DNA of 64,000 nt from contig CAZXLT010000003.1 in the NCBI GenBank assembly GCA_964641545.1, positions 23,818-87,817 of the forward strand, given 5' to 3'. The translations under genes and the position numbers were made by a program. This DNA is from an uncultured Candidatus Saccharibacteria bacterium. Its GTDB lineage: Bacteria > Patescibacteriota > Saccharimonadia > Saccharimonadales > AWTP1-31. Below the pieces are notes generated by a model. That model had not been told where the DNA came from. It worked only from the letters and a program-made list of their open reading frames with translations, and did not search any database. This document shows positions 28,674-50,128 of this stretch, one piece after another. Each line of letters begins with the position of its first letter. Positions within the stretch are counted from its first letter, which is position 1.

Positions 28674-29381
28674 TTAACTGGTTAAGATCCAGCGAATCAC
28701 CATGTCTCGAATTTTCATATATTCTGCTTCTTCAAATTGCATATTAGCAATCATAAACCGCCCGGTCGTTACATGAGAACAAAACATACAATCCTGCAGA
28801 TCTTTGGCATCACTAATAAAAAACGAGTTCGTAATACTATTCGACCATTGCACACTAAAGCTATTTGCACACTTTCCACTGTCTTCTAGGCGAATACAAA
28901 AGGTAGAGTTAGCTGACCTTTGGCTGGCTAGAACGTACTCACACCCGCCTTGCGCTAAACTGTCGCAGTACACTATATTTTTACATTGGTTAATGTCTTG
29001 AGATCTATAGACATTTTCTGAACTATATACATTGTCACTTTGAGCAACATTGATCGAATCTAGCTGCCGTTCGGTTGTCATGTAATTGATCTCATTCCAA
29101 GCAGCCATAATGTCGTCCATGCTGTTTATCGGTCGTTTTGCTTGCCGCCAATCCTCTTTTCCATTAATACCGCCCATGCTGTGCTCCATAGTGACAAACC
29201 TGGTGGGGTTAGTTGACTGAGCCCATGTTGGTTGATTGTCGAAGGCATCAAACACCTGTTGCGGCAACCGAACGTCAAACGCAAATTTCTGCAAAACTTG
29301 TTCGAGGTCATACGGATTTTGATAGCCAAAAACCTGTCCAATAATTTTGTCTACTATTTCTTTTGCTAGCTGGTCGTTCAT
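28674..29381 (-). CDS. Hypothetical protein with Cys/Ser/Asn-rich periodic C-terminal half
   Basis: 235 aa. The C-terminal half carries 8 Cys at roughly 20-25 aa periodicity (CKNIVYC, GGCEYV, STFC, SGKCANSF, DCMFC). AGAGG SD upstream. The start lies 11 nt after the ATPase stop. Confidence 0.6.
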   Translation of the reverse strand: MNDQLAKEIVDKIIGQVFGYQNPYDLEQVLQKFAFDVRLPQQVFDAFDNQPTWAQSTNPTRFVTMEHSMGGINGKEDWRQAKRPINSMDDIMAAWNEINYMTTERQLDSINVAQSDNVYSSENVYRSQDINQCKNIVYCDSLAQGGCEYVLASQRSANSTFCIRLEDSGKCANSFSVQWSNSITNSFFISDAKDLQDCMFCSHVTTGRFMIANMQFEEAEYMKIRDMVIRWILTS

Positions 29382-29392
29382 GACTACCTCTG

Positions 29393-31645
29393 TTACTTCT
29401 TGTTACGTTTTAACTTTGTTCTGCTTGATGATTGGCTTGCCAGTAAATCTTGTAGATTTAGTCCGCGCGGCGACTGTCCTTGAACTTGTCCTACGCCAGA
29501 AGGAGTTGTATTGGTCATTGCACTTTGTAGATCAAACGCAGGTGCCGGAGGATTGGTGACGGTCTGTGGCGACGTCATGCCCGATTCGGCTTCTATCTCC
29601 ATACTCACTTCCGAAGCAATAGGTACAGCGACTTGTTCCGGTGCAAGATGATGTGGCTGTGCTGCAGTGGCTTCTGTGATTTGTTGACCAACTTCTGGCG
29701 AGATAATGGGTGGCGGAACTTTATCTTCTGCATCAATACCGAGAGTAGGCATGCCGGCAACAACAGACGGCTTAGTTTGCTCAGCCGCGCTTTCAACAAA
29801 TTTGGACGGAAGCTGCTGTGGCTTATTGTATGCTTTCAGAGACTCAACTGCAACTTTGGATGTCGGCGAGGCGTCAAGGGTTCTTGCTTTAACACATGGC
29901 AGCATTGTCCCATCGCTGCTCAGGCGCAAAAAGCACTCTCGTGAGTTGAGTGCGGTCAACATTTGTACTCGAACGTCTGACTGTTTAAGTCCTTTGGCCT
30001 TTTCGGCTTCGAGTATTTCCTTCGGAATCTCTATGGTCAAGTTTCCTTCAATGGCTCGAGCGTCTTCTTCGGAAACACGAAATACATAATAATTATAAAC
30101 ATTTGTAAAAATTGCTTCTTGCAATGTTTTTTCAATTTGCCCAAAGTATTGTTGTGTCAAGAAGACAAAAAGATTGTATTTACGCGCTTCGGCCAAAATA
30201 CTAGCCAGTGCCGGGTTCTGAACCACTGAAACTTCGTCAACTATCAAAATTATCTTTTCGTTGAATGCCTTAGCCTGGGCTAGCAGGAATATTTGCTGGA
30301 TCAGCAACCCAGCAACCGTCTTTACAACCTTTTCTCCCATGCTCACTTTATTGAGTGAAAATACTGTCAGAAAATTATCGTTAATCAGTTTAGACAATGA
30401 TGCACTTTGCTCGCCAGATTTTGCCAAACTAGGCTGCATCTGCATTTCGTCAACTAAACTGATGATAGGAACGATCGATTCGTTATAATACTTGGTCCTT
30501 AGCTCATTAAAGTCAGCCCCAAAAAATTGGACTATGTTTGCCGGAACATAACTTTCAACGTGCTTGAGTAACTGGTTACGAAACTCAATGTCCGTTACAA
30601 AGCGCTTGAGGTTCTCCAGAGACATTGCTTGCCCGGTCATTAATACAAACAAACTAAAGCGCATGAGTCGTTCTAGTTTTGGATTGAACTGGTCAGAAAG
30701 CAATGATTTGAATAGTGTTCCAGTCAGTTCAGTCGCCGCAGAAACATCAGTCCCAGCGCCCCCAAACAATTCTGTGGACTGATCTTCACCTTTGAAATCC
30801 AGAATGGTTGTTTTAGGAATTCCAGCCAAGTCTTCTGCCAATGCTGCATGCGGATCCACGACGAGCACTCGATAGTTTTGCTGTAAGCCACCCGCTTTGC
30901 TAAGCCGGTCAATAAAGAGCGTAATTAATTTGGATTTACCGCTTCCGCTCGCGCCGATAATGAAGGAGTGTTTGTCAAAATCGTATGCAGTAATTGGCAG
31001 ATAGTAGTTTTTAGGCAGAAATGGGAAGGTATCGACCTCAAACACAGCATTGATATTGTCACTTTGCATAATATGTAGTGCTTTTTGAATATCCAAATAC
31101 TTGGGTTGTTTGCGCCGCATATATTTTGTGTTGGTTACAAAATCTACCTGTAACAGGTGCGCAGGTAACGCAAATAAGTTTTTGCGAGAAACAGAATACT
31201 GTCCAGCGGCATTCTTAAAGAACATACGAAGCCGCACATGTGCCTGTTGTACATTTATTGTTCGAATATCAAATTCAGCATGATCTAGTTCTTTGGCGCG
31301 CTTTACCTGGTACTTCTCTTTAAGATCAAGCATGTTGCCGCCCGCGACATACTGCACGAAACGTTCGGCAGAGTTGGCCTTCGGAATCTGTACAACTTCA
31401 GTAGCCACCGGTCTTAGCACCACGCCCTCCAGATTATTCGAAAGAAGACCAACGTCTTTATTTGTCCCTATAAAATAGCGAACTGTGCTTTTTTCTATTA
31501 GCACAATTAGCTTCCAGCTCTTCAAGAAACCGATGTACTGAGAAATTGCTAATACGATCTTCCGCCAGTCCTCTTGTGTTAACTGGTCTTTAAGAAGATA
31601 CATTTCGAACCAATGCTCATAGCCGAGATGGCGCTGGTTTTGCAT
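29393..31645 (-). CDS. FtsK/HerA/VirD4(T4CP)-superfamily P-loop ATPase with disordered C-terminal tail
   Basis: Walker [20 protein letters not shown], Walker B ILIVDEVS, and [21 protein letters not shown] see no TM helix. The last ~150 aa are Pro/Gln/Ser-rich. ATG 31643-31645 is preferred because ATG 31652-31654 lies inside a TATAAT box. Confidence 0.7.
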
Positions 31646-31652
31646 GATCTTC

Positions 31653-31658
31653 ATTATA
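31653..31658 (-). promoter_or_regulatory. Consensus -10 TATAAT, 7 nt upstream of ATG 31645 of the ATPase gene (leaderless candidate)
   Basis: Minus strand reads GCGCTATAATGAAGATCATGCAA. Confidence 0.45.
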
Positions 31659-31741
31659 GCGCGTAAGAGTTACAAGCAAAAGCTTTACATTTTACCCAGC
31701 CAGGCATACCATAAGAATAATTATCACACAAGGATCCACGA

Positions 31742-32713
31742 ATGTCAGTCGCAACAAGTTTGCCAGCACAATCGCCTGAAGCATGGAGAGCAATTGAAAT
31801 GCCTCCCGATCATTTTAATCCCTACGATGTTGAACTGCCTGGGATAGAAACGGTTAAGATCCATGGACGTGCCCGACTCGGCAGTATCTCAGTAGAATGG
31901 ATGTTTGAGTCCCGTGCTGAGAATCTTGAAAAACCGCCACTGATATTTCCTTTCTTTTCGGGATTTGGAGGCATACAATTTTCGTCAGAACCGTTCAGTA
32001 ATGCCATGGCACAACTTGATATGGGCACCCTTACAATCGAACCGATCCGCAAAGACGATCGTTCAGCTTGCGAGCGATTATTTGACCCACATGCTATACA
32101 GCTTGAGGCAATGGATATCGCGCTGGAAGGGCTTGCTGATGCAACAGGTATTCGACTGTCATCTGACGTCGATGGAACAAAAGCCGTTCCGCTTGGACAT
32201 TCAATGGGCGGCGAGCCTGTAATAGCCTTCGCAGAAGAACACCTTAAAGAAACATACTTGGCGATCATGCTAGCTACAATAGGGTACGGATCACCAGACG
32301 TCCGCTCAATCGCGAAAAATCTGACACGACCACGTAAAGTTGTTGCCGCTATCACTGAGGAGTTCGCACCCTTCTTACGAATACCTGAAGTACCAAAAAA
32401 CGTTCAATCACTTGGCAAAGCGGCTGGATATTTCATACTCAATCCCCTGCGTACGGTCGGCGAAATAGGCTCTTGCCTCACATCAGATCTTACGCAACGT
32501 AGCCAGACTCTCGACGAAAACGGTGTACCAGTTGTATATGGTCAGCCGGTGTATGACGTTCTTGTTCAAGGGCTTGAGGGTGCACGTAATGCGGTAACTG
32601 TTGTTAGTGAAATTGATAGAGCTGGGCATTTGTTTGTGCAGGCAAAGCCTAATCGTGCAGCATATTGGGTGCATAGCGCCATCAATACACCTGTTCTGGC
32701 TGACGTTGCTTAA
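31742..32713 (+). CDS. Alpha/beta hydrolase fold protein
   Basis: GHSMGG nucleophile elbow with later Asp and His candidates (YDVLV, AGHLF). AAGGA SD 8 nt upstream. The 3' end overlaps the uvrB 3' end by 4 nt. Confidence 0.7.
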
Positions 32714-34677
32714 AGTTTCTTTTTTATATCTTCAATAATGTCGCGCAGTTCTGCAGCTTTTTCGAATTCTAGGTTTGCTGCCGCCAAATCCATTTGGGCG
32801 GTCAAGTCGCTGATCAAGTGTCCGTATTCATCTTTTGGAATTTTCTTGAGGTCAAGCTTGGCTTTTTTTGCTTCTTCAGGAAGATCTTGGCGCAATCCCT
32901 TGTCAATTTGTGAATGGACGCCTTTTGGCGTAATGCCGTGTTTTGTATTATAAGCTTCTTGAATTTTACGACGTCTGTTTGTTTCATCTATAGTCCGTCG
33001 CATGCTTCCTGTTACGGCATCAGCATACATAATAACGCGCCCTTCCTGGTGCCGTGCTGCGCGCCCTACAGTTTGGATCAATGCTTGCTCACTTCTTAGA
33101 AATCCTTCTTTGTCGGCGTCAAGAATCGCTACTAGACTAACTTCTGGCAAATCGAGTCCTTCGCGTAACAGGTTGATGCCGACCACAACGTCGTAAATGC
33201 CCAAGCGCAAATCACGAAGGATATCAGTGCGATCGAGGGTATCTACATCGCTGTGTAAATAGGTAACCTTGATTTTTAGCTCTTGCAAATATTCAGTCAG
33301 GTCTTCGGCCATTCGTTTCGTAAGTGTCGTGATAAGCACGCGCTGTTGCTTGGCGACCGTATCCTTTATTTCAGCAATCAGGTCATCTACCTGTCCTTTG
33401 ACTGGACGAATTTCGATTGGGGGATCCAGCAGTCCTGTTGGACGAATAACCTGCTGGGCTGGGTTTGGACTATGTGACAACTCATACTCAGCGGGCGTTG
33501 CGCTGACGTAGATCACTTTATTGATGTGCTTTTCAAACTCCGTAAACGTCAGTGGACGATTATCAAGTGCACTCGGCAGGCGAAAGCCGTGCTCGACCAA
33601 AACTTCTTTGCGAGCACGATCGCCGTTGTACATGCCTCGAATTTGCGGCATAGTCATGTGACTTTCGTCAACAAACATCAGAAAGTCATCTGGGTAGTAA
33701 TCAAGCAGTGTGGCCGGTTGTTCACCTGCCTCACGGTTAGTCAGATATCGACTATAGTTTTCAATACCTTTCACAAATCCAGTTTCTTCCATCATTTCAA
33801 TATCAAAGTTTGTACGTTGTCCTAGACGTTGGGCTTCAAGCAGCTGACCATGTTTTTTAAAGTCAGCCAGGCGTTCGTCGAGTTCGCGTTTTATTTGTAC
33901 AATTGCAGACTTCAGTTTTTCATAAGGAGTTACGTAGTGCGAGCTAGGAAATACCTTGATGTACTCTCTCGTCTGCAGAACCTCGCCTGTCAATGGATCA
34001 ATCTGGGTTATACGATCAACTTCATCGCCAAATAATTCAATTCGATATGCAAATTCTTCACCCGCGGGAAAAATGTCTAAAACATCGCCCCGTACACGAA
34101 ATGTGCCCCTGTGAAAATCTACATCATTGCGTTGATATTGTATGTCAGTTAGCTGTCGCAGCAACTTATCGCGAACTCGGCGTTCGCCTGTTTTAACAGT
34201 AACGGCCAGACCGTCGTAGTCATCTACCGACCCAATACCATAAATACAGCTTACACTTGCTACTATAATCACATCACGACGACTGAGCAGCGCATCGGTT
34301 GCCGCATGTCTGAGGCGATCAATTTCTTCGTTGATCTGACTATCTTTCTCAATATACGTGTCGCTTCGGGCTATGTAGGCTTCTGGTTGATAGTAGTCGA
34401 AGTAGCTTACAAAATAATGCACAGCGTTTTTTGGAAAGAATTTCTTAAACTCGCTGTAGAGCTGTGCAGCCAGCGTTTTATTGTGACTTAGTATAAGTGT
34501 TGGTTTTTGAGCATTCTGAATGACATTTGCCATAGTAAAGGTCTTGCCAGAGCCAGTTACGCCAAGCAGTGTTTGCTCTTTTTCGTTTCGAGCAAGGCCT
34601 TCGCTTAACTGCTTAATTGCCGAAGGTTGATCACCGGTTGGCCTGTAATCGCTGATGAGCTCGAACTTTGCCATCAT
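32710..34677 (-). CDS. uvrB: Excinuclease ABC subunit B
   Basis: Walker [11 protein letters not shown], helicase motifs, and C-terminal UVR domain [18 protein letters not shown]. Tandem ATGs at 34675-34677 and 34672-34674. Confidence 0.95.
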
Positions 34678-34701: not shown

Positions 34702-35265
34702 TTATCGGTAAAGTTTACTGTGCAGGCGATGCTGTTTATCCAAATGTGCTACCAATTTTTCAATAAGACGCTCTGGGTTCTCGTCGAAGATAACATCCTC
34801 GCTTTTGGCCCTGCCGGCTGCATGTAATATGTCCATGATCTCTGAGCTAACTCCCCCGGCACCCTGTAAAAAAGCAATTGGTGTTTCAGTTTCCATAGCG
34901 ATAGTAAACTCATGCAGCGTGCCAAGTCGTCCTCCGATACTAATTACCGCATCGCTTGACTGGATCAACAGCGCATCCCGACCAACATAATGGAGACCGG
35001 TGTAGAGGATTGCGTCATAAGCTTGTGTAGGCAAACGATACTTTAGGACATGCTCTACTTTTGTAGCGGCTGGGCTTATACCCAAACTCATCAGCCCATG
35101 ACTTTTTTTATAGGCTTCGGCGGCTTCATTTGGCAAACCTATAGTCGCGCCAGTCATGAGCGACTGCTTGGCCTGTGCTAGAGCTCTACCAACCGAGCGA
35201 GCGAGGATTCTTCCCTCTTCTGCACTTTCTCCTCTCGAAGCCCCTGAAACACAAATCTGATACAC
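34702..35265 (-). CDS. LOG/TIGR00725-like Rossmann-fold nucleotide-binding protein
   Basis: ICVSGASRG... and GRDALLIQSSDAVISIGGRLGTLHEF (resembles the LOG PGGxGTxxE motif). The GTG start shares 1 nt with the upstream stop (TAGTG). Confidence 0.65.
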   Translation of the reverse strand: MYQICVSGASRGESAEEGRILARSVGRALAQAKQSLMTGATIGLPNEAAEAYKKSHGLMSLGISPAATKVEHVLKYRLPTQAYDAILYTGLHYVGRDALLIQSSDAVISIGGRLGTLHEFTIAMETETPIAFLQGAGGVSSEIMDILHAAGRAKSEDVIFDENPERLIEKLVAHLDKQHRLHSKLYR

Positions 35266-36506
35266 TACCTAACTCCTAATAGTACTGGTTCGACCAATTC
35301 ATCACTGAGTTGATCAAGCACCTTTTGCTCTAGTGCCTCTTGCGACATATAGCGAAGTAAAAGTTCGTTCCAGAGACTGTTTTGCGCATGATACGTAACG
35401 TGTTGACCATATTCAAGTCCATTACAATAGCTAATCGCGTTATCCAGCAAACTCATCGAGACGGGTCGTATGTTATCGTTTTTGTTTAACACAAAATCAA
35501 GACCGTCCCAAAATTTCAACGCAGGTTCAAGGCGATATATTAAATCTTCGGCTTTACGATACAATAAGTCCTCTTGTTGTACGTGAGGTTCAAAAACTTC
35601 GGGCTGGTGTCTTGACTTGCCGCCAAAATGACGACCAATCGTGCGCCAATGCAGTGGCTGCCCAGCTATGTACATGTCGCCAGTTTTGTCATGTAGCAGC
35701 GTGTCAACAATACTATCGCCAAAGTGCGGCTTTACCTGCTCAAGCTTAAAAAAGGCACTGTATAGCCTGATTTCAGCTAGATAATGCAAGATGAGCGGTA
35801 CCAGCGTCACAAAGAGACCTTTCATGCGATCTAGCGGGAGTGGTAATACTAAAATAATGCCATACTCCTTTAGGTGACACACGTTGTGGTGGTTTTGTAG
35901 CACGAAATCATCAACTAAACCTGACCATCTTGTTTGATCAAGATAGCGAATTTCGACGTCACGAACCTCAAAATCAGTTGGCTTAAGGTGTTTGTACTGT
36001 TTAATTAACCGGTGCTGCCAAGCTTGTGATTCAGCAAAACGAGTTGCGCACAGAAGCTCCCCAACATGCTCTCGTTTCAACAGCGAATCAACCGAACGAT
36101 ATCCCAGGTGTTTCATTATCTTTTTCGGTGGCATCTTTTTTAATAGTTTTTTTGCCACGCTTGACTTCAATACCCAGGCATGTCCAAATTGCGGCAGTCC
36201 TTGCAGTCCGCTTACAATTTTGGGTAAAACTTCAGAGACGCTGCGCGCATCTTGCGCTTTAAATATCTGGGCCAAGTATTTATCATGAAGCGCAACTAGT
36301 GCCTGAAGTGCGTGGTACAGCTCTCTACCGGTTGTGTCGTTTGGGTCAAGTCCGAGCTCCTTCAGCTTTGCTTGTGTCGTTGCTGAAAGTTCTGCAATGA
36401 GTCGCACATCAACGCCCGGCAGACCAGCCGCGGACTCTAACCGTTGAATGAGCGCCGATAGATCAGTGTCGGGTTGCCCTAATAGCTCTGCTAAAACTCG
36501 TGCCAT
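35265..36506 (-). CDS. Hypothetical 413 aa protein, no recognisable family
   Basis: Long uninterrupted ORF with an AAGGGG SD directly upstream. Its stop overlaps the start of the LOG-like gene. Confidence 0.6.
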   Translation of the reverse strand: MARVLAELLGQPDTDLSALIQRLESAAGLPGVDVRLIAELSATTQAKLKELGLDPNDTTGRELYHALQALVALHDKYLAQIFKAQDARSVSEVLPKIVSGLQGLPQFGHAWVLKSSVAKKLLKKMPPKKIMKHLGYRSVDSLLKREHVGELLCATRFAESQAWQHRLIKQYKHLKPTDFEVRDVEIRYLDQTRWSGLVDDFVLQNHHNVCHLKEYGIILVLPLPLDRMKGLFVTLVPLILHYLAEIRLYSAFFKLEQVKPHFGDSIVDTLLHDKTGDMYIAGQPLHWRTIGRHFGGKSRHQPEVFEPHVQQEDLLYRKAEDLIYRLEPALKFWDGLDFVLNKNDNIRPVSMSLLDNAISYCNGLEYGQHVTYHAQNSLWNELLLRYMSQEALEQKVLDQLSDELVEPVLLGVR

Positions 36507-36547
36507 ATTCCCCTTAAGGTTACCATGTTCAATGTCTAAAAAATAGA

Positions 36548-37558
36548 CTATTTAAGGGGCTGGGGGCGGTACCAAGCAGGGCTGCTTTCGAGCAGTTTTT
36601 CAAGTTGTTTTACCGACAATAGACCCATTTGCGCACCAACGTGCTGCACGACACTCATAGAGTTGATTGGCGCCCACTGCAAAGCTCCTGCGATATCGCT
36701 GCCCTTAATAATTGCAGCTACAAATGTACTCGTAAACGCATCCCCCGCCCCTGTCCGCTCGTATGGCGGTGAAGGATCTGGATAAATTGGCATCTTCAGC
36801 CTTTGTTTGCCGTCAGAAGCATAGGCACCGTCATGACCATCACTAATAACCACAATTTTTGGTCCTAGCGCATGTAATCGATCAAACAAGTCATTCAAAT
36901 TATCATAATCACCATCAGTAATCATGACCGCTTCTTCACGGTTAACAGCGACCAGCTCAGTCAACTTATACAACTTCTTTAGTCGTTTCGCGCCAGCTTG
37001 GATTTGAAATGTGCCCGGCTGAAACGCCAACTTAACATCTGAATGCCTATCAAGCCAATCGGCTAACTCATCTTGGAAATCCATAGCATTTTTGCTGATA
37101 GAACTAAAATAAATCCACTTTGGGATCTCGTGCGGACGCAGATGCGGCCAATGATATCTGTACTCTTCGTGTTTTATAAGGATAGTTCGTTCATCCTTAT
37201 ACCACAACACATAGTGATAGTTGCTGAGTTTATCAGGATTTACATGCATAAGCCTGGTATCGACTTTGTTTTTATGCAAGCTTGCCAACATGTCACGACC
37301 ATGCTGATCTCCGCCTACGTTCGCCATCAATGCGCTTTTTAGGCCGAGACGAGCAAAACTGACCGAAGCATTAGCGGCATTTCCAACCGCCTCAATAACT
37401 TCAGCATGATCAAACGGCACCTTAACACCAAAAGGCATAGCAAGTAATTTATTATCGCCTTCTTTTACTACTTTTGCTTGCTCGTCTTGAAGCTTGATGA
37501 ACGCATCGGTCACTATATCACCAACCGAAAGCACATCAATGTCTGATATATCCGTCAT
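36548..37558 (-). CDS. PfkB/ribokinase-family sugar(-phosphate) kinase
   Basis: N-terminal GDIVTD and C-terminal TGAGDAFTSTFVAAI (PfkB signature 2). ATG 37556-37558, preceded by AAGGGTGG, is preferred over GTG 37562-37564. Confidence 0.82.
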   Translation of the reverse strand: MTDISDIDVLSVGDIVTDAFIKLQDEQAKVVKEGDNKLLAMPFGVKVPFDHAEVIEAVGNAANASVSFARLGLKSALMANVGGDQHGRDMLASLHKNKVDTRLMHVNPDKLSNYHYVLWYKDERTILIKHEEYRYHWPHLRPHEIPKWIYFSSISKNAMDFQDELADWLDRHSDVKLAFQPGTFQIQAGAKRLKKLYKLTELVAVNREEAVMITDGDYDNLNDLFDRLHALGPKIVVISDGHDGAYASDGKQRLKMPIYPDPSPPYERTGAGDAFTSTFVAAIIKGSDIAGALQWAPINSMSVVQHVGAQMGLLSVKQLEKLLESSPAWYRPQPLK

Positions 37559-37617
37559 CGCCACCCTTACGTTAACCCTAAGTTGTTACGCTTATATTGT
37601 GACATACGCCATCTTGT

Positions 37618-38532
37618 TCAGGCAAGCTTTGCCTTATTACTAGAATTGAACACGTCCAGTTTACTCTCTACCACAGCTTGCACAGCATCAATAACCTCAT
37701 CCATTAACTTCACAACCGCGTACTCAGTTTTATTTTCTTTTAATACTTTTTCGAGCGTGTCGCGGTATGCAACGCGCATGTCAGAATTAATGTTAATTTT
37801 ACTCACACCAATCTGCACCGCGTCTTTAAAGTAGTGCCCCGGAGTACCACTACCCCCATGTAAACTAATGTTGCAGTCTACTGCGGCACGGATGTCTTTT
37901 AGTAGTTCAAGGTCGAGTCGCTTAGGTACTGGATACTGCCCGTGCAGATTACCAATCGCAGCAGCAAAGGTATCTATGCCGGTTGCGTCCACAAAGGCTT
38001 TTGCCGATTCTGGGGTGCTGAAGGTTTTTTTAATCTCGCTGTAATTAAAGGCTTTGGTAAACTTATTAGAACCGCCGCCGAAGTAGTGAGGTTCGCTTTC
38101 AACCAAGGCCCCTGTTAGGCGCGCATATTCCACCACTTCTTTTGTCTGAGCAATAATTTCTTCTTCAGAGGCGTCATGGTTTTGCTGGCTAATATCAATG
38201 TGGATAAACTCAAATCCCGCGTCGATCCCAGCTTTAGCGGCCTCTACAGAAGGTGAGTGATCAAGATTGATATACATCTCTATCTTGTACTCAGCACGAT
38301 AGTTATCAACCATGTCTCGTACATTCTCTAGCCCCAAAGCCTCAACCTCTCCGTGGCTTACTTCAACCATCAACGGAGCTTTCTTGGCAGCAGCAGCCCT
38401 TGCCACGGCAATAAGTGTTTCTTGGTTGTCTAGATTAAACGCACCAAGAGCAAAATGCTCCCGACGAGCCCGTTCCATGGCCCTACGTGCATTGCTGCAG
38501 TTTAATCTGATTTGTTCTAGGGATAAAGACAT
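37618..38532 (-). CDS. fba: Class II fructose-bisphosphate aldolase family protein
   Basis: GAFNLDN, NLDHS, LHGGSGTP and KININSD motifs. Confidence 0.88.
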   Translation of the reverse strand: MSLSLEQIRLNCSNARRAMERARREHFALGAFNLDNQETLIAVARAAAAKKAPLMVEVSHGEVEALGLENVRDMVDNYRAEYKIEMYINLDHSPSVEAAKAGIDAGFEFIHIDISQQNHDASEEEIIAQTKEVVEYARLTGALVESEPHYFGGGSNKFTKAFNYSEIKKTFSTPESAKAFVDATGIDTFAAAIGNLHGQYPVPKRLDLELLKDIRAAVDCNISLHGGSGTPGHYFKDAVQIGVSKININSDMRVAYRDTLEKVLKENKTEYAVVKLMDEVIDAVQAVVESKLDVFNSSNKAKLA

Positions 38533-38583: not shown

Positions 38584-39213
38584 ATGCAATCGAACGAACA
38601 CAAAAACCGTGTAATGACCGTAATTGTTTGGTTTTTACCTACGTCGCTTGAACTAGTGCTCTACTTTTTTTTAAGTTTGTTTACAGTTTTCTTAAGCAAT
38701 CTTGATGTCGTACGTGAGATTTTGTTTGCCACAGGTGACTTTAACCCGATACGTGCGGCTGTTGACTCGATTACCGTCCTACTCGAGAGGGTCGTCGGTG
38801 AGCGTGTTGCCGGATCGTTATCGCTCGGTATCTTCTGGGGTCTTGTAGGACTACTCGTCAACGCAATTTGGTGGGTTGGATCCAATTTTTCTACCGAGTT
38901 AAACAACGACCTTGTATTTAGCAATTACATGCACCCAAAAAACTACGATCCGAAGGCACCCCTTAAAGAATTTATATCCCGAAGTTTATTTCGCGCTGCC
39001 ATCGCTATACTCTTTGTCTTTTATACAAACTTTGTGATCCGCGAAATGTTGCCGCATCTTACAAAGCGCTACCATGAGATCTTGATGAATTTCTCTGACG
39101 ACAAAAATATCGTAGGACTACTACTAGCAATCATCGGACAAACATTGATGTTCCACGGTTTTGTAGTGCTTACTCGTCTACTTTTGCTGCGTAAACAAGT
39201 GTTTAACGACTAG
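38584..39213 (+). CDS. Hypothetical integral membrane protein (about 4 TM)
   Basis: Hydrophobic segments VIVWFLPTSLELVLYFFLSLFTVFL, GIFWGLVGLLVNAIWWV, AAIAILFVFYTNFVI and LLLAIIGQTLMFHGFVVL. I recognise no family. Confidence 0.55.
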   Translation: MQSNEHKNRVMTVIVWFLPTSLELVLYFFLSLFTVFLSNLDVVREILFATGDFNPIRAAVDSITVLLERVVGERVAGSLSLGIFWGLVGLLVNAIWWVGSNFSTELNNDLVFSNYMHPKNYDPKAPLKEFISRSLFRAAIAILFVFYTNFVIREMLPHLTKRYHEILMNFSDDKNIVGLLLAIIGQTLMFHGFVVLTRLLLLRKQVFND

Positions 39214-40189
39214 TCTTCTCTACAAGAGCAACTGCATTGAGCGCTATGTGCTTTGCCGTCAAGCCAAAATATTCAAGTAGCTCATCAGGTTGTCCTGTCT
39301 CGCCGAACCGATCTTTCATACCCATCCGCGAAATCGGAACAGGATAGTGCTCGCTTACAAGTTCAGCAACCGCTCCGCCAAGTCCGCCTGCGATCTGAGC
39401 TTCTTCAATCACAACAACTCGTTTGGTCTTCTTAACACTAGTGAGTATGGTTTTTTCGTCTAAGGGTTTAATGGTAGGAACATGTACAACTTCTGCGCTT
39501 ATGCCTTCTTTGAACAACATTTCAGAGGCAGCAAGGGCTTGATAGGTCATAGCTCCGGTCGCAATAAGGGTTACATCGTTTCCTTCTTCGAACACATAAG
39601 CTTTACCAATCTCAAACGGTGTTTTACTGGTAGTAATAATCGGTGTTGCTTCACGCACTACGCGAATGTAGGCAGGTCGCTTGTCTTGAGCCAACGCCAG
39701 CGTTGCTTTTTCTGCCTCCACACTATCACCAGGCGCAATAACGATCATATTTGGCAATACTCGCATAAGCGCTATGTCTTCGAGCATTTGGTGAGTAGCG
39801 CCGTCCGGACCCGTATATAATCCGGCATGCGACCCGACAATTCGAACAGGACGGTTGTTGAGGCAAACTGTTGTTCGTATTTGCTCCCAGTTACGTCCAG
39901 GACTAAAAGCAGCATACGAACTAACAAACGGTATCTTACCAACGGCAGCAAGGCCTGAGGCAACGGTAACCAGGTTTTGTTCAGCAATGCCAGCTTCAAT
40001 AAAGCGTTCTGGATAAGCTTTTGCGAAACCATCCATAGCCGTGGAACCAGTGAGGTCGGCACTAGCCGCTACAATTGCTTCGTTATTGCCACCAGCCGTC
40101 ACCAAACCATTTCCAAAACCTTTTCGAATTGGCTCCTTCTCGAATTCAAAAGTAAGCCACTTAGTAGTAACGAGGTGTAAATTACTCAT
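39203..40189 (-). CDS. Transketolase, C-terminal subunit (pyrimidine-binding plus C-terminal domains)
   Basis: FIEAGIAEQNLV and GSHAGLYTGPDGATHQ. ATG 40187-40189, with GGAG 5 nt upstream, is preferred over GTG 40193-40195. Confidence 0.9.
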   Translation of the reverse strand: MSNLHLVTTKWLTFEFEKEPIRKGFGNGLVTAGGNNEAIVAASADLTGSTAMDGFAKAYPERFIEAGIAEQNLVTVASGLAAVGKIPFVSSYAAFSPGRNWEQIRTTVCLNNRPVRIVGSHAGLYTGPDGATHQMLEDIALMRVLPNMIVIAPGDSVEAEKATLALAQDKRPAYIRVVREATPIITTSKTPFEIGKAYVFEEGNDVTLIATGAMTYQALAASEMLFKEGISAEVVHVPTIKPLDEKTILTSVKKTKRVVVIEEAQIAGGLGGAVAELVSEHYPVPISRMGMKDRFGETGQPDELLEYFGLTAKHIALNAVALVEKTSR

Positions 40190-41042
40190 GCTCACTCCGT
40201 ATCTTTCCCTGTAATGTGCGTAACTCGTGTAGTGCTTTAATGGCTTGTTCGTGATCCGGCACGCCTACACCGGGTGCACCGCCATGCCAGTGAAAGTCGT
40301 ATTCCATAAAATCAACGCCTTTGCCGGGCACTGTGTGGGCAATAATTACAACCGGCTTTTCGGTTATAGCACGAGCCATGGCGCACGCATCAATAACTTC
40401 TTCAATATTGTTGCCGTCAACTTCTATGACATGCCAGCCAAACGCTTGCCACTTGGCTGATAGGTCTTCCAGAGGCATAACTACTTCTGTGGGACCGTCT
40501 ATTTGGATATTGTTTCGGTCGACAATACCAATTAGATTTTCTAGTTTGTATTTTCCGGCCAGCATTGCCGCTTCCCAGATATTGCCTTCGTCTAGCTCCC
40601 CATCGCCCATCACAACGTACACCCAGCGGTGCCTTTGTTTGTCCATACGTAGCCCGAGGGCAATGCCCGCCGCTTGACTCAGACCAGAACCTAAAGGACC
40701 GCTCGTGGTTTCGAGGCCAGGCAGCCTTTCTCGCTCGGGATGTCCTTGCAACCGACTTTGAAATTTGCGCAGCGTTAACAATTCTTTACGGTCAAAGTAA
40801 CCTGCGTGTGCCATGGCTGCATACTGTACAGGAACACAATGTCCGTTACTTAGGAGCAAAAAGTCACGTTTATCCCAGTCGGGCTTTTGTGGGTCATGCC
40901 GTAGAACGTCAAAGTACAGCGCCGTGAAGATATCAGCTAACCCCATGGGTCCAGCTGAATGACCCGAGCCAGCGTGCTCCAGCATTCTAATGATATCTTT
41001 TCGTATTTCGACCGCCTTCAAATCAAGTTCTTCAACTGTCAT
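40182..41042 (-). CDS. Transketolase, N-terminal subunit (thiamine diphosphate-binding)
   Basis: GSGHSAGPMG and GDGELDEGNIWEA. Start set to ATG 41040-41042 (MTVEELDLKAVE); the longer ORF would overlap rpe. Confidence 0.9.
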   Translation of the reverse strand: MTVEELDLKAVEIRKDIIRMLEHAGSGHSAGPMGLADIFTALYFDVLRHDPQKPDWDKRDFLLLSNGHCVPVQYAAMAHAGYFDRKELLTLRKFQSRLQGHPERERLPGLETTSGPLGSGLSQAAGIALGLRMDKQRHRWVYVVMGDGELDEGNIWEAAMLAGKYKLENLIGIVDRNNIQIDGPTEVVMPLEDLSAKWQAFGWHVIEVDGNNIEEVIDACAMARAITEKPVVIIAHTVPGKGVDFMEYDFHWHGGAPGVGVPDHEQAIKALHELRTLQGKIRSEHE

Positions 41043-41046
41043 GTAC

Positions 41047-41679
41047 TTACTCCTCCACTGCTTCTTCAAGTGTAGCATAAGCTTTTCTTGGGTGAGGTGA
41101 GCGTTGAATGGCGCCCCCAACATTAAGCACATCAACCCCTCCGCGAACAATTTTTGCAGCGTTTTTGGTGTTTATGCCACCGTCCCAACCAATTTCTATG
41201 TCCGGGTTAGTTTTCCTGATTTGTTCGACCTTCTTAAGCAAATCGAGGTTGGCCGATCCCCCAAAGTGACCCAGATTACCACTAAACAGCAGGACGTGCT
41301 TGATGTCTTTGAGTGCGGTTTTGATTTTCGAAACAGGAGTCCGAGCAAGTAAGGCAACACCAACCTTAATCCCAGCTGTATTGAGCGGCTTAGCAACATC
41401 ATAGTAATTGCCGACCGATTCTGCCTGCACGATCACCATGTGCGGCTTTAGCGCGATCAACTGCGGCATAAACGGTCTAACTGCCTCGTACATTAAATGT
41501 ATGTCCGCCGTTACACCGGCAGGCCACCAAACATGATGCAGATCAATTAGTTTGTTCTGGGTAAAAACACCATCTGCCAAATCAATATGTACCCGTTTAG
41601 CGAACTGTGCTATCCGCTCCATCTGCTCACGATACTCGTGCGGTGTTGACGCAGTCACGGTTGGACAGATCACGGCCAT
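41047..41679 (-). CDS. rpe: Ribulose-phosphate 3-epimerase family protein (divergent)
   Basis: HIDLADGVFTQN aligns with HxDVMDGxFVPN, DIHLMY with DxHLMV, and GWDGGIN...NVGGAI with the C-terminal RPE barrel motifs. Confidence 0.75.
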   Translation of the reverse strand: MAVICPTVTASTPHEYREQMERIAQFAKRVHIDLADGVFTQNKLIDLHHVWWPAGVTADIHLMYEAVRPFMPQLIALKPHMVIVQAESVGNYYDVAKPLNTAGIKVGVALLARTPVSKIKTALKDIKHVLLFSGNLGHFGGSANLDLLKKVEQIRKTNPDIEIGWDGGINTKNAAKIVRGGVDVLNVGGAIQRSPHPRKAYATLEEAVEE

Positions 41680-41682
41680 TGT

Positions 41683-42144
41683 TTATGCACCCTTCCTCAA
41701 CAACCGCCCAACCAGGGCTAAAACAGATGTGCCAACAAGAATCCAAAAACCGCCAAGTGGTATTATTAGCAGAGCGAAACCACCATCAACTACAGGAGCA
41801 GCGAAAACACTTATCAAAATATACGCCTGCAGCAAGTCAAAAGCTGTGTTCGCAAAAAAACCAAAACGATATACGAGCTCAGACCGTCTTTGATCGTGCA
41901 CGAAACTCCAACTTACGAGATACAGAGCAAGATAGCGTATTGCAGCAGAAACACTTAAGGCTGACCATACAAGTACCATCGTCAGTCCATTTGTAGGCGT
42001 GGCATCTAAGACATCTCCCCAACCAAAACGCCGCCCGACAGCAGCAAAAATGACAATAAGGCAGGTGAAAATTGTCTGTGAAGCAAGAGCAAGACCAATT
42101 AACCACTTAAGGTCAGGCTTTTTGACACCCCGGATGTTTTTCAT
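41683..42144 (-). CDS. Hypothetical integral membrane protein (about 4 TM)
   Basis: 153 aa, hydrophobic throughout. ATGA overlap with the rpiB stop; its stop lies 3 nt before the rpe start. Confidence 0.55.
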   Translation of the reverse strand: MKNIRGVKKPDLKWLIGLALASQTIFTCLIVIFAAVGRRFGWGDVLDATPTNGLTMVLVWSALSVSAAIRYLALYLVSWSFVHDQRRSELVYRFGFFANTAFDLLQAYILISVFAAPVVDGGFALLIIPLGGFWILVGTSVLALVGRLLRKGA

Positions 42145-42584
42145 AACTGATCCAGTTCATCTTTTCGTCTAATATAACGCGGGGCAGCAGCAAATGCGGT
42201 GCTCAAGAAGGTTTCAACAACAACATTGGCGTTTTCAGCTTCCAATGTTTTGGCGGGGATACATAGTACATTGCAGTCATCGTCATTTCGAGCAGCGCGA
42301 ACCGACTCACGGTCATAGCCTAAACAGGCACGAATGCCTTTAAACCGGTTGGCAGCAATGCACATACCTTGTCCACTACCACAGATCAAAATGCCCCGCG
42401 GGTCTTCATCGTCGCTGGCAAGCATATCTGCTGCTACTCTTCCGGCGAACACAGGATAGTCATCGTCTGGGTTAAGCTTTTGATCTCCGTCATCAACAAC
42501 TTCATAGCCAGCACGAGTTAGATACTCGATCAGTTTGGCTTTAAGCCTAAACCCGTTGTGATCAGCACCAATATATACTTTCAT
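42141..42584 (-). CDS. rpiB: Ribose-5-phosphate isomerase B
   Basis: MKVYIGADHNGFRLK and ICGSGQGMCIAANR. Confidence 0.92.
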   Translation of the reverse strand: MKVYIGADHNGFRLKAKLIEYLTRAGYEVVDDGDQKLNPDDDYPVFAGRVAADMLASDDEDPRGILICGSGQGMCIAANRFKGIRACLGYDRESVRAARNDDDCNVLCIPAKTLEAENANVVVETFLSTAFAAAPRYIRRKDELDQL

Positions 42585-42595
42585 GGGAACAAACC

Positions 42596-43636
42596 CTATT
42601 TTTTATGTGCTTCTGTTTCAGCCTTCTTATGAATCAACGAACCAACATCGGCTACCTGTTCGACAAGCCTATTACTGTACCCCCATTCGTTGTCGTACCA
42701 CACAACGACTTTGGCAAGGTTACCATCTACAACATTAGTAAGAAGTGAATCAATAATCCCCGAATGGCTGTTACCTATATAGTCACTACTAACCAGCGCC
42801 TCCTCACTCACGTCTAGAATTCCCTGAAAGTACGGCTCTTTAGCAGCTTTTTTTAGCGCTTTGTTGATGTCTTCTTTGGTCGTTGATTTTTTAAGCAGCA
42901 TGGTTACATCGCTCAGGCTAACTACTGGAGTGGGCACGCGTACACTTAGTCCATCAAACTTTTCTTTCAACTGAGGAACCGTCAGCGTTACAGCAATAGC
43001 TGCACCTGTCGTAGTTGGCACCATATTTTCTGCCGCCGAGCGTCCTTCTCGCAAATCTTTAGCTGGAGCATCCTGCAACACCTGGCTTGCAGTATAGCTA
43101 TGGACAGTGGTCAACATGGCTTTTTCTACGCCAAACTCTGCGTCCATAATAGACATAACGGCAGCAATGGAGTTAGTGGTGCAACTCGCATTGCTAATAA
43201 TGTCCCCTGCACCACTTAGCTTATCTTCATTGGCACCTATCACTAGGGTCTCAACTCCATCACTTTTACTCGGACCAGAGATGACAACTTTTTTTGCGCC
43301 TGCTTCAATATGCTTTTTTGCGTCCTCAATCTTGGTAAAACGCCCTGTGGATTCGATCACGACGTCGACCCTAAACTTGTGCCACGGCAACAGCACGGGA
43401 TCTTTCTCGGCTGTAACAGGTATTTTCTGCCCATCAACAATTAAATTGTTTTCGTCACTCTCGACTGTATGCTCGTACGTTCCGTAGTTACTATCGTGTT
43501 TTAAGAGATACGCCAAAACGTCATTGCTGGCTAGATCGTTAATAGCAACAACTTCCAAATCTGACCGTTCAAACGCAATTTTAAAAGCATTTCGTCCAAT
43601 TCGGCCGAATCCGTTAATGGCTATGCGTGTTTTCAT
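42596..43636 (-). CDS. gap: Glyceraldehyde-3-phosphate dehydrogenase
   Basis: INGFGRIGRN, active-site SNASCTTN, and an AGGGGG SD upstream. Confidence 0.95.
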   Translation of the reverse strand: MKTRIAINGFGRIGRNAFKIAFERSDLEVVAINDLASNDVLAYLLKHDSNYGTYEHTVESDENNLIVDGQKIPVTAEKDPVLLPWHKFRVDVVIESTGRFTKIEDAKKHIEAGAKKVVISGPSKSDGVETLVIGANEDKLSGAGDIISNASCTTNSIAAVMSIMDAEFGVEKAMLTTVHSYTASQVLQDAPAKDLREGRSAAENMVPTTTGAAIAVTLTVPQLKEKFDGLSVRVPTPVVSLSDVTMLLKKSTTKEDINKALKKAAKEPYFQGILDVSEEALVSSDYIGNSHSGIIDSLLTNVVDGNLAKVVVWYDNEWGYSNRLVEQVADVGSLIHKKAETEAHKK

Positions 43637-43706: not shown

Positions 43707-44354
43707 TTATCGGTCGACTTCTTTACCCACAAACTCGGGCAAACTGACAAGATCATCTAACGATGAAAGATCGGAAATTAGTTCTTTAGGCAAGTATCTA
43801 TTTCTGGGATGGTTGAGCATACTTTTTACCTCATCCAAAGCTTTGAACATAACTTTTATTTTTTCTCCGTCACTTTCTGGCTTGTGAGTCTCCTCACGGT
43901 CAAGATCGGTGGCAATAAACTGATAAATGAACCACTCTATTTTGGCGACCGGCTGCACCACGTTAATGAGTTTCCAGTTTTTGTAGTATAAACCCGCTTC
44001 TTCTGCCAGCTCACGCTGTGCTGCTTGCAGTTCATTCTCGCCTGGCACATCATGGCGTCCTGCAGGAATAGTGTAATGAACCGGCAGGTTTGGCTGCTCC
44101 TCTTCAAGTACCACGATCTTACCGTCTTTTATAGCTATAATCTCAACCGTGTCTGGTCGGCGAAGCATCTCGAAGGTCTTAGTGGTGCCATCGAACATCT
44201 CTTGTTCCCACTGGTAGGTATCGAATATATTTCCCGAAAATACTTTTTGAGCCTTGTCAGGAATTAGAATTGCGTTTTTCGGAACTGTTTTTTTCAAATT
44301 ATGCCGCTTCTTTCTCCCATCGGGCTTGGCATTCTTTGATAATTGCCTTGGCAT
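43707..44354 (-). CDS. Nudix hydrolase (ADP-ribose pyrophosphatase-like)
   Basis: Nudix box GRHDVPGENELQAAQRELAEEAGL. The start is uncertain: ATGs at 44354, 44357 and 44363 lie inside the ppa 3' end, while TTG 44295-44297 sits 1 nt after the ppa stop. Confidence 0.75.
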   Translation of the reverse strand: MPRQLSKNAKPDGRKKRHNLKKTVPKNAILIPDKAQKVFSGNIFDTYQWEQEMFDGTTKTFEMLRRPDTVEIIAIKDGKIVVLEEEQPNLPVHYTIPAGRHDVPGENELQAAQRELAEEAGLYYKNWKLINVVQPVAKIEWFIYQFIATDLDREETHKPESDGEKIKVMFKALDEVKSMLNHPRNRYLPKELISDLSSLDDLVSLPEFVGKEVDR

Positions 44355-44838
44355 CATCCGCATCACCCCAGCCAAGTACATGCGTAGTTCCTGGCTTCTT
44401 GAGGTCTTTGTAATGATTGAAGTGATGCTCAATTTGCTTTTGTAGCCCCACTGGTAAATCGTCTAATGAATCCGCCTTTTCGCCTGCATGCCGATCGTCG
44501 GCGGGTACCACTACTATCTTATGGTCCATTTCGCCACCGTCCTCAAAATTCAAAACACCGACTACGCGCGCCTCCTTAATGACCAAACCCATAGGCAGCG
44601 GTTCTTCAGTCACTATAAGCGTGTCGAGTTCATCACCATCTTCATCGAGCGTCTGCGGGATAAAACCGTAACTAGTCGGTTTGGCAAAAATACCCGGCTC
44701 AACTCGATCAAGTTCGAAGGTACCTTTTTTGCGGTTATATTCAGCCTTCAGCATACTGCCCTTGGGAATTTCTACAACCGTTACAATTACTCCGCCGTTA
44801 ACATCACCGGCATCATAAATTTTATTAAAGTCAGTCAT
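44299..44838 (-). CDS. ppa: Inorganic pyrophosphatase (family I)
   Basis: VVEIPKGS, DGDELDTLIV and VVGVLNFEDGGEMDHKIV. AAGGAG SD upstream. Confidence 0.93.
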   Translation of the reverse strand: MTDFNKIYDAGDVNGGVIVTVVEIPKGSMLKAEYNRKKGTFELDRVEPGIFAKPTSYGFIPQTLDEDGDELDTLIVTEEPLPMGLVIKEARVVGVLNFEDGGEMDHKIVVVPADDRHAGEKADSLDDLPVGLQKQIEHHFNHYKDLKKPGTTHVLGWGDADDAKAIIKECQARWEKEAA

Positions 44839-49656: not shown

Positions 49657-50109
49657 CTACAATTTTATTGGGGTTGTTGGCCATCCATGCGACAGGCTGT
49701 GAATAATGGCTTTTTGGAGTGTCGGTGTCCTAAACGGCAAGCTGCCAAGTGCGTTAACTTCTGCCCAAAGTGGTGTGTGTACGTTTATGCCAATGCGATT
49801 CATAAAACCTTCCTCGCTCATTGTCTGAATTTCAATTTTGTCATGCGGCGCTACGTTACACAAAAAAATGTATTGGTCATTGAAGTCGGCACTATGGTGT
49901 TCCTCGATAAATACCATTCGTGCGGCAGTAACAGTTAGCCCAGTTTCTTCTTTGACTTCTCGTACCAACGCCTGCTCAGGGGTCTCTCCATCGTTCAGAC
50001 GTCCGCCAACAAGCGTAAAGTACTTGCTATTGTACTTGTCCCTGTGCATCACAAGGCATTTGTCATCTTCAATAATAATAGCTCGAGCCGCTTTGCCTGT
50101 TTTTCCCAT
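49657..50109 (-). CDS. Nudix hydrolase
   Basis: Nudix box GGRLNDGETPEQALVREVKEETGL. ATG 50107-50109 (MGKTGKAARAIII) is preferred because a TATACT box at 50119-50124 abuts ATG 50116-50118. Confidence 0.8.
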   Translation of the reverse strand: MGKTGKAARAIIIEDDKCLVMHRDKYNSKYFTLVGGRLNDGETPEQALVREVKEETGLTVTAARMVFIEEHHSADFNDQYIFLCNVAPHDKIEIQTMSEEGFMNRIGINVHTPLWAEVNALGSLPFRTPTLQKAIIHSLSHGWPTTPIKL

Positions 50110-50118
50110 TGTGCGCAT

Positions 50119-50124
50119 AGTATA
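50119..50124 (-). promoter_or_regulatory. -10 TATACT, 9 nt upstream of ATG 50109 of the Nudix gene (leaderless candidate)
   Basis: Minus strand reads GGTGTATACTATGCGCACAATGGGA. Confidence 0.35.
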
Positions 50125-50128
50125 CACC

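Follow-up and report, generated by a model that had tools for sequence, protein, structure and literature searches.

A protein family restricted to Saccharibacteria, without detectable relatives, is persistently associated with LOG-type proteins at the end of a pentose-phosphate operon

Why would a protein of 413 amino acids (aa) without detectable relatives be encoded in tight coupling with a small LOG-type protein, at the end of an operon of the pentose-phosphate pathway? The question is raised by a 64,000-nucleotide (nt) stretch of DNA, hereafter the window, from an uncultured Candidatus Saccharibacteria bacterium (assembly GCA_964641545.1, contig CAZXLT010000003.1, positions 23,818 to 87,817 of the forward strand). 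Saccharibacteria are ultrasmall episymbionts that depend on a host, and their supply of pentoses and energy is partly understood. We refer to the 413 aa protein as X and to the 187 aa protein encoded directly after it as SLOG187. X proves to be one member of a large family, and the record of its association with LOG-type proteins, which extends to gene fusion and to repeated exchange of the partner, makes it very probable that X and a LOG-type protein function together. The explanation we favor for that joint function is a module that hydrolyzes nucleotides to ribose 5-phosphate, in the manner of the Escherichia coli protein PpnN and with X as partner; on present sequence evidence it comes close to being probable without reaching that point.

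The two open reading frames (ORFs) and their overlap lie where the original prediction, made by a model from the DNA letters alone, had placed them, as both the ORF list and the minus-strand sequence confirm (Table 1). Base 35265 is shared by the stop codon TAG of X and the start codon GTG of the SLOG gene (TAGTG), an AGGAG motif stands 7 nt upstream of that start, and the junction reads AGGAGTTAGGTAGTGTATCAG on the minus strand. All the peptides that had been quoted from the small protein occur in it, namely residues 4-12 (ICVSGASRG), 38-46 (TGATIGLPN) and 103-120 (SSDAVISIGGRLGTLHEF). The neighbors had been named correctly as well, with pfkB and fba upstream of the pair and uvrB downstream according to Pfam. 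Both genes of the pair match their neighbors in GC content and in GC content at third codon positions (GC3), and no paralog of either was found elsewhere in the window. Because homologs of X are many and the tight junction recurs, X and SLOG187 are real genes and not chance ORFs.

Homologs of X form more than 1400 clusters at 90% identity, with 911 representatives at 50% identity, and nearly all are 395-430 aa long. A scan of one genome per GTDB species, which was limited by its search pattern and gives a lower bound, places X in at least 414 species. Public annotation of X reads "hypothetical protein", and every informative record title among the matches names Saccharibacteria, Saccharimonadales or Patescibacteria. 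Three odd labels occur (Limnocylindria, Verrucomicrobiae and Pedobacter); the locus of the Limnocylindria record has the same synteny as the others, which suggests mis-binning. X is thus a large family restricted to Saccharibacteria. An exact-sequence look-up of the X protein of the window found no record, and a single-sequence metagenome scan with P0233 found nothing.

The original prediction had proposed that X and the SLOG gene are translationally coupled, and had suggested checking their co-occurrence across genomes. The check bears the proposal out, since the pair is co-conserved and its tight junction recurs in related loci. Loci with X were pooled from genome and metagenome collections, with duplicates between the collections retained, to give 167, in which the gene directly after X encodes a cluster-4 SLOG 136 times, a canonical LOG 10 times and neither 21 times. 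For about 12 of the 21 the sequence does not extend far enough for inspection; where there is room downstream, a gene of the SLOG superfamily stands right after X at 146 of 155 loci. Among 80 genome loci the SLOG gene follows X directly in 73 and lies 2.6 kb away in 2, the contig ends early in 1, and 4 are without it. Among 80 metagenome loci, 69 of which have room downstream, about 57 have a cluster-4 SLOG, 7 a canonical LOG (5 on the same strand, 2 convergent) and 4 no partner, uvrB directly following X in three of these four. The gap between the two genes, taken over 75 loci, measures -4 nt (ATGA) at 13 loci and -1 nt at 22, lies between 0 and 3 nt at 24 and exceeds 3 nt at 16, so that 59 have a gap of 3 nt or less and 35 overlap by 4 or 1 nt. 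Coupling as seen in the window is therefore the rule across related loci, and the pair is kept, with a 4-nt overlap, even at a locus whose X is 27% identical to that of the window. In two related genomes a two-gene cassette of 2.6 kb parts X from the SLOG gene (L076, 7233-9805; L078, 7233-9880); its two products are a possible regulator of about 275 aa and a protein of about 355 aa, the latter encoded on the minus strand.

Repeated swaps of the partner provide the strongest argument that X works with a LOG-type protein, beyond mere adjacency. In P0128, a fusion protein of 658 aa, residues 1-411 correspond to X and are joined by a linker to a canonical LOG domain that carries GGGLGIME and PGGFGTLDE motifs (PF03641, E = 1.4e-32; TIGR00730, E = 2.8e-42). 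Fusions of this kind, 652-673 aa long, account for about 40 of the 120 clusters at 90% identity that are closest to P0128. They come from independent sources, two are named "TIGR00730 family Rossman fold protein" by NCBI, and they are encoded at the corresponding point of the operon, where a separate SLOG gene is missing. Because the fused LOG domain is 28% identical to SLOG187, it is, judged by sequence, a different family member and not the same SLOG gene joined on. The closest unfused kin of the fusion clade are one locus with a cluster-4 SLOG downstream (L082, X 70% identical) and one with a convergent canonical LOG (L087, X 71% identical). X proteins with a canonical LOG as partner fall into three or four groups, whose nearest neighbors (62-72% identity) have cluster-4 partners; the LOG-type partner of X has therefore been exchanged more than once, the association being either re-made or kept through gene replacement. 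The canonical TIGR00730 LOGs beside or fused to X (L081, L086, L087, L130, L132, L152, L153, L160, L162 and L164) occur in three arrangements: fused, on the same strand, and convergent. They are 51-64% identical to one another, and their sequences suggest that a single Saccharibacteria LOG lineage has been recruited repeatedly next to X.

X has a mass of 47 kDa and an isoelectric point of 6.8 and is predicted to be soluble. Searches of Pfam, NCBIfam, PADLOC and PHROGs gave no match for the window protein or for any of 43 close, 14 divergent and 18 mixed homologs searched individually. A confident AlphaFold2 model built with 43 homologs (mean predicted local distance difference test score 86, predicted template modeling score [pTM] 0.82) is helical in its N-terminal region (residues ~1-102), alpha/beta with short strands in the center (~109-290) and mainly helical in its C-terminal region; Foldseek found no match for it, the best E values being 1.5 in PDB and 0.31 in BFVD. 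These searches, the PDB sequence search included, place X in no described protein family and no known fold, in keeping with the original prediction, in which it was a partner without recognizable motif. Several candidate assignments were set aside. Matches to OST-HTH/LOTUS are sub-threshold (E of 0.008 or worse), scattered over 6 members, and were treated as noise; the sole return of a PDB profile search is a de novo designed protein at E = 0.019 and is not meaningful; two very weak TUT7 matches and one phage nucleotidyltransferase match in Foldseek are not evidence for a nucleotidyltransferase fold; and hhalign rejects X as a degenerate SLOG paralog (probability 0.2%). Over 135 representatives at 50% identity, D33, E62, P127, F179, W287, W333, D355 and Y386 are conserved in at least 97%, and E24, D54, D57, K114, S138, S141, E159, W163, D178, E180, G216 and F262 in 90-97%. 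The near-universal residues are mostly acidic or aromatic, and conservation runs along the whole chain.

SLOG187 belongs to SLOG cluster 4 by the Pfam gathering threshold: PF18306 (LDcluster4) matches residues 2-167 over profile positions 2-150 of 151, with 95.7 bits against a cut-off of 26.3 (E = 2.7e-27). It falls below the cut-offs of TIGR00725, an NCBIfam hypothetical equivalog (69 bits vs. 106.9, E = 3e-19), PF03641 (15.8 vs. 27), TIGR00730 (33.5 vs. 96.35) and the LOG equivalog CtkRMPhLog (19.4 vs. 300). Of the LOG/TIGR00725/SLOG assignment made originally, the SLOG/LOG superfamily stands and strict membership of TIGR00725 or LOG does not; on sequence, SLOG187 is related to TIGR00725 without being a member by the NCBI criterion. 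A profile of 20 orthologs, searched against PDB, ranks 1RCU (E = 2e-13), 6Y01 (E = 4e-13) and 2IZ5 (E = 9e-11) ahead of bona fide LOG enzymes (3qua, 5zbj, 1t35, 5wq3 and others). Of these relatives, 6Y01 and 2IZ5 are molybdenum-cofactor (Moco) carrier proteins (PMC7470044).

The usual glycine-rich nucleotide/phosphate loop, GGGxGxMG, is missing from SLOG187, as had been pointed out, and TGATIGLP takes its place. Because G39, A40, T41 and G43 are invariant in 76 Saccharibacteria orthologs, the GATxG sequence is a fixed trait, the family's own version of GGGxG, and not a local oddity. Also invariant in these orthologs are R96, D97, G111, G112, G115 and E119. The counterparts of the catalytic Arg and Glu of LOG enzymes are thus in place, the PGGxGTxxE motif reading IGGRLGTLHE with its Pro replaced, and the region of R96 and E119 aligns with the ARK and GTLEE motifs of the LOG 5zbj. 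A family-specific insertion of 7 residues carries an invariant H72, Y76 and P79.

The genomic setting points toward sugar phosphates. The minus strand of the window reads, in order, gap, rpiB, a gene for a 153 aa orphan, rpe, tktN, tktC, fba, pfkB, X, SLOG and uvrB, and the string rpiB-rpe-tktN-tktC-fba-pfkB-X-SLOG is kept at loci with X of 27-70% identity. The genes of this operon cover the conversion of ribose 5-phosphate to trioses; a PfkB kinase and fructose-bisphosphate aldolase could together replace transaldolase by way of sedoheptulose 1,7-bisphosphate. In TM7x, a PfkB gene beside fba has been proposed as the missing phosphofructokinase (PMC12815258). Nearly all loci have pfkB upstream of X. 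The gene for X stays directly after pfkB or fba, its start even overlapping the fba stop at one locus (L081), while the link to uvrB is often interrupted by inserted genes. No terminator-like site was found between the SLOG gene and uvrB in the window, and uvrB may be co-transcribed with the pair; we do not assume a functional link. A scan for promoters and terminators gave no excess of sites and no informative site.

Southlakia epibionticum ML1 presents an exception that separates the two genes. Its order is rpiB, rpe, tkt, tkt, fba, pfkB (SEML1_0547), SEML1_0546, small hypothetical genes and uvrB, and SEML1_0546 is annotated "LOG family protein" (PMC10633639). SEML1_0546 matches PF18306 (E = 2.7e-30) and starts 9 nt after pfkB, and the stretch from pfkB to uvrB holds no gene of the size of X. 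Because Southlakia keeps the SLOG gene after pfkB without X, the tie of SLOG to the operon is independent of X. The same genome has a different SLOG pairing, SEML1_0423/0424, in which a second TIGR00725/cluster-4 SLOG stands beside a phosphoribosyltransferase-like protein (PMC10633639, Table S2).

Table 1. Coordinates, in the window, of the gene pair, of sequence elements within it and of genes nearby
Feature	Position	Strand	Remarks
Gene X	35265..36506	-	ATG start, 413 aa ORF
SLOG gene (SLOG187)	34702..35265	-	GTG start, 187 aa ORF; cluster-4, LOG/MCP-like Rossmannoid
Coupling junction	35263..35277	-	AGGAG 35277-35273; X stop TAG 35267-35265; SLOG start GTG 35265-35263
X start region	36504..36515	-	ATG 36506-36504; AAGGGG 36515-36510 before ATG
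GATxG loop, G39-A40-T41-I42-G43 of SLOG187	35137..35151	-	replaces LOG GGGxG phosphate loop
R96-D97 and G111-G112-R-L-G115-T-L-H-E119 of SLOG187	34909..34980	-	counterparts of LOG catalytic Arg and PGGxGTxxE
PfkB-family sugar or nucleoside kinase	36548..37564	-	PF00294, E = 1.3e-33; 41 nt gap to X
Class II fructose-bisphosphate aldolase, fba	37618..38532	-	PF01116, E = 2.6e-66
209 aa predicted membrane protein	38584-39213	+	between tktC and fba
Split transketolase	39203-40195 (C-terminal half); 40182-41150 (N-terminal half)	-	homologs in L081, L082, L084 with transketolase Pfam domains
rpe	41047-41679	-	Pfam
Membrane orphan, 153 aa	41683-42144	-	multi-pass; between rpiB and rpe
rpiB	42141-42584	-	Pfam
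gap	42596-43636	-	Pfam
NUDIX hydrolase gene	43707-44432	-	upstream of gap-rpiB string
Inorganic pyrophosphatase gene	region 43707-44838	-	upstream of gap-rpiB string
NUDIX hydrolase gene	49657-50145	-	upstream of gap-rpiB string
uvrB	32710..34677	-	Pfam; 24 nt after SLOG stop
Three extra genes, uvrB to gatA	28674-32713		

Some features of the neighborhood deserve a record of their own. The PfkB encoded upstream of X in loci L001-L080 comes in two forms, ~60-82% or ~30-37% identical to that of the window; one locus has two tandem PfkB genes of 323 and 456 aa (L086, 3645-5997). These kinases might act on fructose 6-phosphate, sedoheptulose 7-phosphate, ribose or nucleosides. Within the split transketolase the two ORFs share 14 nt, and tktN with its TTG start as listed overlaps rpe by ~100 nt; its true start is probably an internal ATG downstream of that TTG. 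Likewise, the first NUDIX ORF of Table 1 overlaps the pyrophosphatase ORF by 134 nt, and its true start is probably further downstream. The 153 aa membrane orphan has no Pfam or PDB match, and a gene without annotation and of comparable length fills its slot in L087 (145 aa) and, it appears, in L086 (143 aa). Of the 80 genome loci, about 25 have a homolog of the 209 aa predicted membrane protein in the corresponding position. Beyond uvrB, the window has three extra genes. One, on the plus strand, encodes a 323 aa protein with no Pfam match and a GHSMGG motif that suggests an alpha/beta hydrolase; another encodes a coupling-protein ATPase of 753 aa that is TrwB/VirD4-like, and the remaining one an orphan of 235 aa. 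The three look like an insertion, because gatCAB directly follows uvrB in L081, L084 and L086. Shortly past uvrB, L087 has a gene (11387-11782, minus strand) that encodes a CdiA_C toxin domain.

In our proposal, X and the SLOG protein would together make up a single housekeeping module, conserved in Saccharibacteria, which closes an operon of the non-oxidative pentose-phosphate pathway and lower glycolysis. The SLOG subunit would most likely bind nucleoside 5'-monophosphates (NMPs) and cleave their N-glycosidic bond, as LOG enzymes and PpnN do, to give the free base and ribose 5-phosphate, the latter being passed to the enzymes encoded just upstream. X would be a lineage-specific partner working with whichever LOG-type protein is present, and might either control the activity of that partner, as the extra domains of PpnN do, or perform or channel an adjacent step. 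Because the partner swaps come easily, conservation extends along the chain, and the invariant residues are acidic and aromatic, we lean slightly toward a metabolic or enzymatic role for X; the fusion is compatible with either. The original prediction had left both a metabolic and a conflict or nucleotide-sensing role open for the pair. The metabolic role has gained, with the pair found as the last element of a conserved operon and the SLOG repeatedly swapped for a canonical LOG, or replaced by one fused to X; the other role has not.

A number of observations weigh against this PpnN-like module. The case for it is built from sequence and genomic context, for X as well as for the cluster-4 SLOGs of these organisms. 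Adjacency to sugar-phosphate genes is by itself weak evidence of a shared pathway, because the whole region, uvrB and gatCAB included, is syntenic across the class. X is an accessory, lost from some lineages and dispensable there, and nine loci have X with no adjacent SLOG gene. In Southlakia, SEML1_0546 is flagged as a core family and called non-essential at all three passages of transposon sequencing (PMC10633639, Table S1). Of the three solved structures nearest to the SLOG protein, two are Moco carriers, and the phosphate-binding GGGxG is replaced by GATxG. The conservation of R96 and E119 is compatible with catalysis and no proof of it, because both residues also align with equivalent ones in the Moco carriers, which keep the same Arg and Glu. 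An AlphaFold2 model of a natural X-LOG fusion, taken as a proxy for the complex, has a pTM of 0.53, disordered linkers and no confidently predicted packing between the domains, and the mirror-tree correlation of X with SLOG is weakly positive (r = 0.38, partial r = 0.30).

The main rival explanation makes the SLOG protein a non-catalytic carrier or sensor of a phosphorylated small molecule, with X as its client or the protein it controls, and with the LOGs that replace it acting as binders too. Its attraction lies in the Moco carriers 6y01 (E = 4e-13) and 2iz5 (E = 9e-11) being so close, in a glycine-rich loop unlike that of active LOGs, and in an Arg and a Glu that do not discriminate, being common to carriers. 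The TIGR00730 proteins that repeatedly take the place of SLOG have the full GGGxGxM and PGGFGTLDE motifs of active LOGs, however, the pair lies inside a catabolic sugar-phosphate operon, and Saccharibacteria are not known to make molybdenum cofactor; we consider this explanation unlikely, if by no means negligible. It is rather improbable that X is itself an enzyme of a neighboring step, such as a metal-dependent nuclease or phosphodiesterase that frees NMPs from RNA or oligonucleotides, or an enzyme acting on the released base or sugar phosphate, and that the LOG-type protein is its metabolic neighbor and not a regulated subunit. Chain-wide conservation of acidic and aromatic residues (D33, D54, D57, E62, D178, E180, D355, W287, W333, Y386) would suit an enzyme, swaps between two LOG families are easier through a shared metabolite than across a fixed interface, and X is no degenerate SLOG paralog; yet X matches no nuclease, phosphatase or other enzyme family in fold or sequence, and, K114 apart, conserved His, Cys or Lys residues that could make up a catalytic set are not apparent in it.

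A role in nucleotide-pool sanitation, or as a DNA-repair accessory, would have a LOG-like N-glycosidase act alongside uvrB and clear host-derived (deoxy)nucleotides that are damaged or non-canonical. The uvrB gene follows the pair in most loci, usually within ~25-150 nt and in the window with no terminator-like site between, and two NUDIX hydrolase genes are nearby (Table 1). Against this, inserted genes break the uvrB link in many loci and X remains tied to pfkB or fba, to the point of overlapping fba in L081, and we find the idea distinctly unlikely. That the pair are fortuitous neighbors, unrelated and brought together by the dense packing of a compact genome, is a thought prompted by the frequency of overlaps in small genomes, by co-conservation that is partly inherited with the synteny of the whole region, by Southlakia without X and by the nine loci without a SLOG gene. 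It sits badly with a fusion clade of many members and with canonical LOGs recruited beside X in three arrangements and several X lineages, and seems very unlikely. An anti-phage or conflict system in which the SLOG protein senses a nucleotide signal and X is the effector would follow from the nucleotide-sensing SLOG domains of Thoeris and related systems and from the orphan status that X has in common with many effectors. Such a defense role is unlikely, and we give it next to no weight: PADLOC has no match for either protein, the Thoeris ThcA model reaches 12.9 bits where 110 are required, GC and GC3 are native, and at least 414 species have the genes at a fixed chromosomal position, unlike defense islands. 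The neighborhood is one of housekeeping genes with no signal-generating enzyme (TIR, SMODS), toxin domain or other effector-like gene, and the Southlakia SLOG copy is flagged as a core family.

A literature search found no paper on X, on its association or fusion with LOG, or on the pair in a Saccharibacteria pentose-phosphate operon, and no relevant mention of TIGR00725 or PF18306. What is new is the X family without detectable relatives, the way in which it is persistently associated with LOG-type proteins and fused to them, and the place of the pair in a pentose-phosphate operon; SLOG187 itself is unremarkable within a known superfamily, albeit unstudied. A LOG-type nucleotide hydrolase encoded in this operon would give scavenged nucleotides a simple route into central metabolism. 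Saccharibacteria are not known to make nucleotides themselves, and a nucleotide hydrolase is dangerous in a cell unable to remake them; a dedicated partner such as X could then be the control element. In its fullest form the proposal has X as a protein of new fold, in complex with LOG-type phosphoribohydrolases, that regulates the entry of host-derived nucleotides into ribose 5-phosphate for carbon and energy. This we regard as possible and rather doubtful. If true, it would be a counterpart of the AMP-phosphorylase/RuBisCO route of other bacteria of the Candidate Phyla Radiation, and X would matter more as a new fold controlling nucleotide catabolism. In any event, fusion to LOG offers a concrete handle on the function of the X family.

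Known systems resemble the pair to differing degrees. Thoeris ThsA and related SLOG sensors belong to the same superfamily and bind nucleotide-derived ligands, but the pair has no SIR2, TIR or transmembrane effector beside it, and its gene is core and syntenic and lies outside any mobile island. SLOG cluster 4/TIGR00725, represented by 1RCU of Thermotoga maritima, gives the best family match, and its members are the closest solved structures by sequence. The Moco carriers (2IZ5, 6Y01), to which SLOG187 is similar in sequence, differ in that they bind molybdenum cofactor and are not known as catalytic (PMC7470044). Neither they nor 1RCU have been described with an X-like partner. The LOG/TIGR00730 proteins (PF03641), cytokinin riboside 5'-monophosphate phosphoribohydrolases, have the same Rossmannoid superfamily and the Arg and GGxGTxxE Glu in common with SLOG187, and true TIGR00730 proteins take the SLOG place by X in some Saccharibacteria; SLOG187 differs in scoring below the PF03641 and TIGR00730 cut-offs, in its GATxG loop and in its 7-residue insertion.

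A further comparison is with PpnN (YgdH) of E. coli, in which regulatory domains flank a LOG core and which converts NMPs to base and ribose 5-phosphate, for entry into the pentose-phosphate pathway (PMC10311079). X-LOG fusions match the PpnN model weakly, by way of the LOG domain (E = 3.4e-6). PpnN-type nucleosidases are further characterized by activation by (p)ppGpp. Their additional domains lie N- and C-terminal to the LOG core within a single chain, whereas X is encoded apart, as a protein of 413 aa, or is fused N-terminally to its partner; and the partner in the window is a cluster-4 SLOG and not a canonical LOG. X, with no Pfam or NCBIfam match, also differs in having no similarity by sequence or by Foldseek to anything in PDB, which presumably includes PpnN structures. 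The resemblance would accordingly be functional and architectural only: in both cases, a core of the LOG superfamily is accompanied by additional protein mass that is not LOG.

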